The position numbers and the translations under genes are program-made. 64,000 nucleotides of DNA from Gemmatimonadota bacterium (GTDB taxonomy: Bacteria; Gemmatimonadota; Gemmatimonadetes; Palauibacterales; KS3-K002): contig CP070815.1 of NCBI GenBank assembly GCA_020344215.1, positions 2,600,644 through 2,664,643 of the forward strand. Reading direction: 5' to 3'. Every line of letters starts with the position of its first letter. Within the stretch, counting starts at the first letter, position 1. Shown here in pieces: positions 12,354-12,488 of this stretch. The notes under the pieces were generated by a model that was given only the letters and a program-made list of their open reading frames with translations, made no database searches and had not been told where the DNA came from.

Positions 12354-12488
12354 CTTACTTGTAATCGTACTCGTAATCGTGCTGCTACTCGACTCGTCAT
12401 CCTCATCGTCTCTCCCAAACTGGCGGTACTAATGACGAGTAGGAGTAGGATTAGGACTACGAGTACGAGTAGGAGTAGGATAAGAAGT
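12354..12488. repeat. Imperfect long palindrome whose arms are tandem hexamer arrays (TACTCG-like on one arm, CGAGTA-like on the other). Lower GC than surroundings. Lies between convergent genes.
   Basis: Left arm gtactcg taatcg tgctgc tactcg actcg tcatc. Right arm gacgag taggag taggat taggac tacgag tacgag taggag tagga. Confidence 0.7.

Follow-up and report, generated by a model that had tools for sequence, protein, structure and literature searches.

The question raised by this stretch of DNA is what kind of element lies between the two convergent genes around position 12400, whether it stands alone and how it may have acquired its unusual build. The window denotes the whole stretch that was analysed, 64,000 nt in length, and locus 1 the element itself.

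Structure of locus 1

The genes around locus 1 and the parts of the element are as follows.

12055–12336, + strand: gene for a Gemmatimonadota-specific ubiquitin-like (Ubl) protein of 93 aa, stop codon 15 nt before the hairpin
12337–12504: locus 1 spacer, 168 nt, between the convergent Ubl and SDR genes
12352–12400: 5' arm, degenerate hexamers (TCTTAC TTGTAA TCGTAC TCGTAA TCGTGC TGCTAC and so on), ending in CTCGTCAT
12401–12431: non-periodic central part, folding into an apical loop and a small inner stem
12432–12481: 3' arm, ATGACGAG followed by GTAGGA/GTACGA hexamers
12505–13245, − strand: convergent short-chain dehydrogenase (SDR) gene, stop codon 23 nt beyond the hairpin

Genes in the window were called using third-position G+C content and Pfam, and the calls around locus 1 agree with those at the orthologous loci of relatives. 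An exact-protein look-up of the SDR gave no match, probably owing to a differing choice of start codon.

An earlier note, made from the sequence alone, had described an imperfect inverted repeat of about 135 bp between convergent genes, with arms that are degenerate, mutually complementary hexamer arrays. Both parts of this description were borne out. The full fold gives an imperfect hairpin of 130 nt, in which position 12352 is paired with position 12481, and contains an inverted repeat with 39-nt arms (12353–12391 and 12436–12474) of 79% Watson-Crick complementarity. The MFE of the + strand RNA was −63.6 kcal/mol (z = −5.6), a value equalled by none of 200 shuffles, and that of the − strand RNA was −48.5 kcal/mol (z = −4.1). 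Analysis with TRF detected a period of 6/12 in the 5' array (12356–12380) and 7.3 copies of a 6-nt unit (GAGTAG, 86% matches) in the 3' array (12437–12480), with a higher-order period of 24 nt on top of the hexamers in the 3' arm. When scanned along antidiagonals, the arms paired in registers 0, +6, +12 and +18, with scores of 24.7, 21.6, 13.4 and 14.7, respectively. The spacer has a G+C content of 51%, compared to about 65% for the window, so that the locus is indeed AT-richer than its surroundings, as had been stated. The open reading frame at 12149–12580 (− strand), whose translation over the array reads LLILLLLVLVVLILLLLV (poly-Leu), overlaps both real genes and was therefore rightly regarded as spurious.

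Further periodic hairpins in the window

For the antidiagonal scan, ungapped pairing was scored at every hairpin centre, with G:U pairs allowed, and its persistence in period-offset registers was recorded. The multi-register signature was found at exactly six sites in the window (scan coordinates 12353, 20912, 30314, 44591, 60206 and 60974), corresponding to 6 of the 11 hairpins with scores of 16 or more. Twelve first-order Markov simulations yielded between zero and three hairpins each and a single periodic one in total (about 0.1 per window), so that the periodicity exceeds chance. Fold z-scores over the six elements ranged from −3.9 to −7.4. Four loci beyond locus 1 had already been named as having the same architecture, and this build was found at each of them, with z-scores of −3.9 to −6.1 on the better strand. 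The sixth element (20912–20989; z = −5.3 on the + and −7.4 on the − strand) had been missed. The five further hairpins and one additional array are listed below.

20912–20989: hairpin with period 7 (CGAACAT CAAACAC TGAGCGC TGAACAT and so on), in a convergent spacer, 14 nt past the stop codon of an SSF transporter gene
21014–21041: extra heptamer array (GATGCGG GATGTTG GATGTGG), sharing the spacer with the preceding element
30314–30423: heptamer-arm hairpin (CGAATGT CGAATAC TGAATGG TGAAGTT TGAAGGC and their mirror image), in the convergent hypE/hypF spacer
44588–44670: heptamer-arm hairpin (GGTGGTC GGTAGTC GGTGGTC AGTGGT and CACTGAC TACTGAT CACCGAT)
60199–60278, − strand: hexamer-arm hairpin (CTCGTC and GACGAG units), between coxIII and coxIV within the cox operon
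60974–61058, − strand: heptamer-arm hairpin (GTGATCG GTGATCG GTAGTCA GTGGTCG in mRNA sense), between coxI and coxIII

The period, as determined with TRF and a lag-p scan, is 7 in the elements at 20912, 30314, 44588 and 60974 and 6 at locus 1 and at 60199. The elements are 70–130 nt long, with degenerate stems of 25–50 bp. The extra array at 21014–21041 consists of a unit type complementary to the 5' array of the neighbouring 20912 element. The arms of the 44588 and 60974 elements belong to a common unit family and share GTCGGTGGTCAGT and GATCACCGATC.

Both hairpins of the cox operon are present in a metagenome contig (L001), complete and identical to the window base for base; a second contig (L002) contains all of the hairpin between coxIII and coxIV and, of the one between coxI and coxIII, the 3' arm, again base for base. 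As these contigs were assembled independently from different runs, the two cox-operon hairpins are no assembly artefact, a replication that is confined to these two and excludes locus 1.

Position relative to genes and terminator signals

According to curated distances, all six elements start 0–18 nt past a stop codon. Four of them lie in convergent spacers (Ubl/SDR, SSF transporter/PspA-like, hypE/hypF, unknown gene/cation-efflux gene), two inside the cox operon and none in divergent (promoter) spacers. The coxI stop codon is located at the 5' edge of the 60974 hairpin, and the 5' arm of the 44588 hairpin contains the stop codon of the gene at 43962–44600, to which the cation-efflux gene is convergent. 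Fold and position thus support the proposal that these are structured intergenic elements with a common unusual architecture, at sites typical of 3'-end structures.

A terminator or insulator had been considered in this context. Being stem-loops that directly follow stop codons and occur in convergent spacers, the elements resemble intrinsic or bidirectional terminators, from which they differ in that they lack a U-tract, are A+T-richer, have stems 3–5 times longer with many mismatches and are not conserved in relatives. A run of T residues after the hairpin was absent at all six elements. Likewise, a search for the terminator consensus, a G+C-rich stem of 5–14 bp with a loop of 3–8 nt and a subsequent T run, gave no match at the six loci, and the number of matches in the window did not exceed that in shuffles, with none at gene ends. 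The 30314 hairpin encloses a G+C-rich core stem-loop (GGCGGG-tgtc-tGCCCGCC; 9-bp stem, 4-nt loop) that, taken alone, resembles an intrinsic terminator, but AUUUCGUCAUU comes next. Canonical intrinsic terminators, with the consensus stem and U run, were thereby ruled out for the six loci. Searches against Rfam gave no match at the gathering score in the whole window and none at E ≤ 1 in the region 12200–12650, and a Pfam scan of about 20 of the roughly 55 genes of the window detected no transposase.

Turnover in close relatives

The nearest homologues of CoxIII and of the ubiquitin-like protein are encoded in MAGs of Gemmatimonadota and Longimicrobiales, with identities of 63–88% for the best CoxIII matches. 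Syntenic loci were compared in relatives with 83–88% identity in CoxIII and 78–86% in the ubiquitin-like protein. The locus 1 hairpin is lineage-specific: the spacer comprises 168 nt in the window, 5 nt in the relatives L216 and L219 and 19 nt in L220. In L216, a hexamer-arm hairpin (CCCCTC/GAGGGG) is located one gene upstream of the position of locus 1.

Between coxI and coxIII, a full heptamer hairpin with the units of the window was found in L086, its 5' arm comprising four units compared to five in the window. L211 carries an asymmetric hairpin of GTTACCG units and L214 a hairpin with GTATGCG and ACACCGC arms that contains one A·C mismatch per unit. Half arrays, consisting of a three-unit direct array alone, are present in L083, L088 and L213, and the corresponding spacer of L090 and L212 contains neither array nor hairpin. 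The units in all relatives that carry them fit the pattern C[GA]GT[AG]NN, which indicates that the element at this position is old, yet constantly changing. The hexamer hairpin between coxIII and coxIV is small in L088, reduced to a direct array in L214 and absent from L083 and L090 (spacer of 26–41 nt). Overall, the hairpin-free cox spacers of relatives measure 26–52 nt.

The SSF spacers of the window and of L220 each contain a periodic hairpin, and that of L216 contains a perfect two-unit hairpin of 16 bp, which is lacking in L217. L216 and L217 are near-identical, with the 93-aa protein being identical, and are likely to represent one species. They differ by a hairpin-carrying indel of 70 nt, which alters the C-terminus of the transporter. 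A direct repeat of 7 nt (CCGTCTA) flanks the indel, with one copy contributing to the stem. The hairpins thus grow, shrink and disappear in place, and the existence of close relatives with hairpin-free spacers indicates that the element is dispensable and that any function it has is non-essential.

Occurrence in other genomes

Periodic-arm hairpins were catalogued in a sample of 1.43 Mb around coxIII from about 90 genomes, picked without regard to repeats. The 33 hairpins obtained have periods of 7 (26 cases), 6 (4 cases), 8 (1 case) and 9 (2 cases) and are hosted by Gemmatimonadota (Gemmatimonadales), several Acidobacteriota, Chloroflexota and Planctomycetota, with unit sequences that show no relation from genome to genome. 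Tandem arrays of at least three copies showed a similar distribution, with 36 arrays of period 7 and 6, 12, 3 and 2 arrays of periods 5, 6, 8 and 9, respectively. Periodic hairpins contain 23 of the 36 heptamer arrays, a proportion that calls for a pairing mechanism or for selection for the stem. Metagenomes were also searched for three GTNRTCR units in a row, which gave at least 120 loci holding at least 126 array sites, on contigs with 33–71% G+C; among the matches listed, 70 of the 126 sites have an inverted partner scoring 12 or more.

In the wider set, for which gene calls are crude, the share of spacers that carry an element is 3.1% for convergent, 2.0% for co-directional and 1.5% for divergent gene pairs, so that convergent spacers are only weakly enriched. 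Hairpins of the large catalogue lie a median of 4 nt from the stop codon, but this value is uninformative because ORFs were defined from stop to stop and the arrays themselves carry stop codons; it was set aside in favour of the curated distances of the window.

Coupling of the arms, mismatches and strand symmetry

The lengths of the left and right arrays are correlated (Spearman 0.43, p = 2e-5). The median difference in arm length was 6 nt, compared to 12 nt when partners were permuted, and no median below 7 nt was obtained in 1000 permutations. Non-Watson-Crick pairs recur at equal unit phase with a frequency of 0.43, compared to 0.33 (p = 3e-14), which indicates that whole units were duplicated with the mismatch included. 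The stems are slippery, as registers shifted by one unit score almost like the best one.

An excess of G:U pairs on the + strand was noted at loci 1–3. However, a set of 67 periodic hairpins from co-directional spacers showed no greater stability of the sense than of the antisense strand (31 vs 29, p = 0.63), and G:U asymmetry was therefore rejected as a marker of the transcribed strand. This parity means that there is no strand-specific signature of selection at the RNA level in the set of 67. G:U counts are not independent, since mismatches are amplified by unit duplication, and the excess at loci 1–3 may go back to one founder mismatch multiplied in this manner.

Relation to known repeat classes

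The presence of hairpin-forming tandem heptamers in cyanobacteria was recognised 35 years ago and, to our knowledge, no function has been assigned to them since. STRR are said to have been described in these organisms by Mazel in 1990 and by Vioque in 1997, the latter reportedly finding them in RNase P RNA.

The earlier note could not match locus 1 to a known repeat class; three counterparts nevertheless exist, namely STRR (PMC2670836), the GGGAATC pairs of Xanthomonas (PMC4692102) and the paired sites of Geobacter (PMC2700814). [quoted passage not shown] Like the window elements, they are non-coding tandem arrays of 7-bp units that fold into a hairpin, are found between cistrons or immediately downstream of a gene and belong to few unit families per genome. 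The window elements have the head-to-tail short units and the nearby complementary array folding into a hairpin that mark the STRR type. They differ in their Gemmatimonadota-like host as opposed to filamentous cyanobacteria, a genomic G+C content of 65%, units other than STRR1–3, degenerate stems of 25–50 bp and a period of 6 in two of the six elements, including locus 1. None of the consensus units of the window is within one mismatch of CCCCAGT, TTGGTCA, CAACAGT, TAACTGA or GGGAATC in any rotation on either strand, a result that bears on sequence relatedness only, because the STRR-type class is defined by architecture.

In Xanthomonas, Rehm et al. found 70–75 inverted (convergent) pairs of GGGAATC arrays per genome, with lengths that vary greatly between species; the arrays are transcribed, and the inverted arrangement was remarked on without analysis (PMC4692102). 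These arrays resemble the window elements in being intergenic heptamer arrays of high-G+C genomes, often in inverted pairs able to form stem-loops, whose lengths differ widely among close relatives. Xanthomonas has one dominant G-rich unit, studied as a G-quadruplex former, whereas the window contains several families, mostly not capable of forming G-quadruplexes. For Geobacter metallireducens, Aklujkar et al. reported 24, 21 and 8 opposite-strand pairs of tandem octa- or heptanucleotide repeats (classes 1–3: 4 × GTTGCTYN, 3 × TCTCCGTS and 5 × MTYCTGA), which occur in dozens of copies, are missing from the sister species and were read as IHF/HU sites (PMC2700814). Similarity to the window lies in the inverted pairs of three to five tandem 7–9-nt units with a variable spacer in intergenic positions (one between proB and proA); the Geobacter sites were treated as binding sites rather than hairpins and, having a conserved consensus found by BLAST, are more family-like than the window elements. 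Direct arrays of TAACTGA have been described by MacGregor, who raised the possibility of cold-shock proteins, each covering about 7 nt (PMC4679880). Heptamers are also the favoured unit of long simple-sequence repeats in bacteria, which Mrazek (2007), as quoted in PMC4679880 and PMC4692102, attributed to slippage.

REP/BIME sequences, for which an effect on mRNA stability or termination has been proposed (PMC3733652), share with the window elements an imperfectly palindromic structure, a position downstream of genes in co-directional and convergent spacers and probable transcription. REPs are non-periodic, RAYT-linked and 20–40 bp long, have a conserved consensus and carry GTAG or CGTC as head motif, whereas the window elements have periodic arms. 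Although such heads are present in several window units, they occur in 3 of 33 units, compared to 3.2 expected, and membership in the REP class was rejected. The description as a REP-like family did not hold, as the elements have no common consensus, their units vary by locus and unit number changes in place. They belong together by structure rather than by sequence. Among known kinds, inverted tandem-heptamer arrays come closest, and the window elements represent these in a new phylum, with new units and with hexamer arms in two cases. The architecture is thus already known, but scattered under different names.

Heptamer arrays are usually seen as a peculiarity of cyanobacteria, or else as G-quadruplexes (Xanthomonas) and protein-binding sites (Geobacter). 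One architecture is now seen in Gemmatimonadota, Acidobacteriota, Chloroflexota and Planctomycetota. Since most of the sampled heptamer arrays are paired, with length-matched arms, a general process tied to the hairpin, mutational or functional, is indicated, which is open to simple comparative tests. On the practical side, the elements give rise to spurious ORFs, as illustrated by the poly-Leu frame at locus 1, and alter gene 3' ends through indels, as between L216 and L217. They are also likely to cause difficulties when high-G+C metagenome-assembled genomes are assembled and their genes called.

Proposed origin and possible role

The reading that we favour, with a probability of roughly 0.5, is that the elements are stop-codon-proximal stem-loops which have been lengthened by slippage, are non-essential and probably serve as transcript 3'-end or intercistronic structures. 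Greater confidence than this overall figure is placed in the part concerning structure and evolution, where structure, periodicity, position, in-place turnover, arm-length matching and periodic mismatches were observed directly. The functional part, a 3'-end or intercistronic RNA structure suggested by position, is more tentative and has a little less than an even chance of being correct.

From these observations we infer the following course of events. An element would be seeded by a short hairpin or a short array, and slipped-strand mispairing during replication would lead to the gain or loss of whole units in an arm, with the stem being lengthened by tandem duplication of 6–7-nt stem segments. 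Loops of at least 5 nt escape mismatch repair. Arm lengths may be kept matched by selection for the stem or by intrastrand template switching, a process established in E. coli as quasi-palindrome correction. This would result in a slippery stem of 25–50 bp, in which several registers pair almost equally well. Once transcribed, such a hairpin could cause pausing or termination without a U-tract or form a barrier to 3' exonucleases, in a modulatory and dispensable role. The preference for period 7 agrees with the general excess of heptanucleotide repeats. Slippage alone does not explain the inverted pairing of most heptamer arrays or the sharp period of 7. The favoured reading also has against it the arm homology between some non-orthologous loci, the absence of U-tracts, the equal stability of sense and antisense strands and the weak enrichment of convergent spacers.

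The same mutational processes could, however, operate without any function, such that the elements would be pure by-products: self-extending quasi-palindromes tolerated in short spacers after genes and between convergent genes. We regard this as possible, although clearly less probable than the favoured reading. It would readily accommodate close relatives with hairpin-free spacers of 5–52 nt, the indel polymorphism between the near-identical L216 and L217, the arbitrary unit sequences across phyla, the lack of a sense-over-antisense bias and the tolerance of periodic mismatches, and the excess of period 7 fits the simple-sequence-repeat bias ascribed to slippage in the work quoted in PMC4679880 and PMC4692102. 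Less easily reconciled with it are the persistence of one unit family at the coxI-coxIII position across lineages of 83–88% CoxIII identity, an arm-length matching that beats all 1000 permutations, the pairing of 23 of 36 heptamer arrays and the fact that these are the dominant long hairpins in a genome without canonical terminators, as scanned in the window. That the elements are mobile but non-autonomous (REP-, MITE- or STRR-like) and are spread by a transposase encoded elsewhere, for which their inverted ends provide arrays of short binding sites, is unlikely. This reading draws on presence/absence differences between relatives, on the L216 hexamer hairpin lying one gene upstream of locus 1, on unit families (YGAATRY, GTNRTCR) that recur at different loci in relatives and on arm homology at non-orthologous loci. 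Such homology, seen between 44588 and 60974 and between positions 11881 and 15237 of L214 (35 of 40 nt identical, loops and flanks unrelated), hints at copying between loci. With regard to MITEs, arms are common to some loci, but the similarity does not extend to loops and flanks, and neither defined termini nor a convincing target-site duplication was observed in the 64-kb window and at the relatives' loci. Moreover, the differences between copies in loops and flanks speak against mobility, as do the lack of enrichment of GTAG/CGTC REP heads and the absence of evidence for a linked transposase in the Rfam search and in the about 20 of roughly 55 window genes scanned with Pfam. Orthologous elements differ by whole units and half arrays, as change in place predicts, and the 70-nt indel, with its flanking repeat derived from the stem and no terminal inverted repeats, fits a slippage deletion.

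The omega repressor of pSM19035 and MetJ bind cooperatively to direct and inverted heptads, and operators for proteins of this kind classically consist of tandem heptads in both orientations. A role at the DNA level, with the 6–8-bp units acting as cooperative sites for a nucleoid-associated or ribbon-helix-helix type protein, is very improbable. It would be compatible with the absence of a sense-strand bias and has a parallel in the interpretation of the Geobacter pairs as IHF/HU sites (PMC2700814); in addition, ATCACCG/GATCACT heptads in the 60974 arm are similar to the omega site WATCACW, a resemblance only. However, unlike heptad operators at promoters, the six elements lie at gene 3' ends or in the interior of the cox operon and never in the divergent promoter spacers of the window. 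A single binding protein is unlikely because units differ between loci of one genome, and binding sites need neither length-matched arms, nor a spacer, nor register-level complementarity with G:U-compatible changes. It is also quite unlikely that heptamer-arm hairpins are a cross-phylum functional device and not slippage debris, in which case the 7-nt ruler and the pairing of most heptamer arrays would go back to a conserved machine acting on nucleic acids in steps of 7 nt, or the hairpins would be built by dedicated template switching. Cold-shock or S1-type OB-fold chaperones, covering about 7 nt each (PMC4679880), are candidates for such a machine; by coating the nascent 5' arm, they could act as a switch for the hairpin and thereby for termination or mRNA decay.

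The base composition of the arms was also considered with respect to their origin. A derivation from the A-tract/U-tract flanks of bidirectional terminators was rejected, since the 5' arms have no A-over-T bias (17 vs 13). They show a weak bias of G over C (22 vs 9, p = 0.03, uncorrected).

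Hexamer-arm hairpins and the genes beside locus 1

Five hexamer-arm hairpins were seen (window 12353 and 60206, and L216:9563, L088:10604-10656 and L004:4497 in comparison contigs). In all five, pyrimidines predominate in the 5' arm and purines in the 3' arm, and the latter reads GAN-NNN, a codon-like (Asp/Glu-like) pattern; heptamer-arm hairpins, unlike these, do not follow the pyrimidine-5'/purine-3' GAN-NNN rule. The hairpin of L216, a syntenic locus of a relative, is strong (9563-9646, CCCCTC/GAGGGG units, score 32.8) and sits downstream of the M24 peptidase gene; relative to the position of locus 1, the hexamer-arm hairpin beside the ubiquitin-like gene in the window, this place is one gene further upstream. 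At the position equivalent to L216 9563-9646, the window carries no hairpin. Downstream of the window's M24 (prolidase-like) peptidase gene, two small genes lie in tandem:

11776-12036, +, small gene, 86 aa, for which Pfam gave no match
12055-12336, +, small gene, 93 aa, ubiquitin-like protein by its homologues' Pfam and UniRef matches

Some homologues of the 93-aa protein match Pfam YukD (PF08817), and one bears the UniRef name 'Ubiquitin-like domain'. The synteny of the trio is kept in Gemmatimonadota relatives.

Variation and size of heptamer-arm hairpins

L216 and L217, syntenic contigs with an identical 93-aa ubiquitin-like protein, differ in the same region by a 70-nt indel (L216 18652-18721) with CCGTCTA, a direct repeat of 7 nt, at its boundaries. 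The additional segment in L216 contains a perfect 16-bp hairpin of two heptamer units and alters the C-terminus of the SSF transporter relative to L217.

The hairpin between coxI and coxIII in L214, another syntenic locus (6366-6449), is built from five GTATGCG units in one arm and four ACACCGC units in the other, with exactly one A.C mismatch in each paired unit. Each of the two arms appears to have been homogenised separately. Two non-orthologous heptamer-arm hairpins of this same genome (L214 11881-12077 and 15237-15356) have a 40-nt 5' arm in common (35/40 identical) and unrelated loops, which may be a trace of sequence copied, or gene-converted, from one locus to the other.

Very long heptamer-arm hairpins were found in metagenome contigs with a G+C content of 40-57%:

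L208:5-265, very long heptamer-arm hairpin
L129:4684-4879, very long heptamer-arm hairpin
L140:1029-1195, very long heptamer-arm hairpin

Their arms of 82-122 nt are built from units of the GTNRTCR type. This architecture can reach a far greater size than the window's examples.

The L216 spacer also contains CCCCGAATCCCGGAATCCCCGATTCCC (18738-18765, adjoining the hairpin), whose units resemble the Xanthomonas heptamer GGGAATC/GATTCCC.

Other features of the window

33458-33545, -, tRNA-Thr(GGU) called by ARAGORN
36068-37039, -, multihaem cytochrome c gene with MtrC/MtrF-like and paired CXXCH domains
37485-37646, long imperfect, non-periodic inverted repeat (54-nt arms, 54-nt spacer, score 23.6)
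57165-57280, inverted repeat without periodicity (arms of 23 nt that are 91% complementary, around a 70-nt spacer)

The tRNA call is unusually long (88 nt) and overlaps the start of ORF 32718-33512; an Rfam scan of the window at gathering score reported no tRNA. The G+C-based gene caller had overlooked the cytochrome c gene, so the interval 35896-36969, taken as a '1074-nt spacer', cannot be counted as non-coding DNA. The inverted repeat at 37485-37646 is internal to gene 36970-38493, and that at 57165-57280 covers the place where gene 55274-57187 starts, together with the divergent spacer on the side of a ctaA-like gene.
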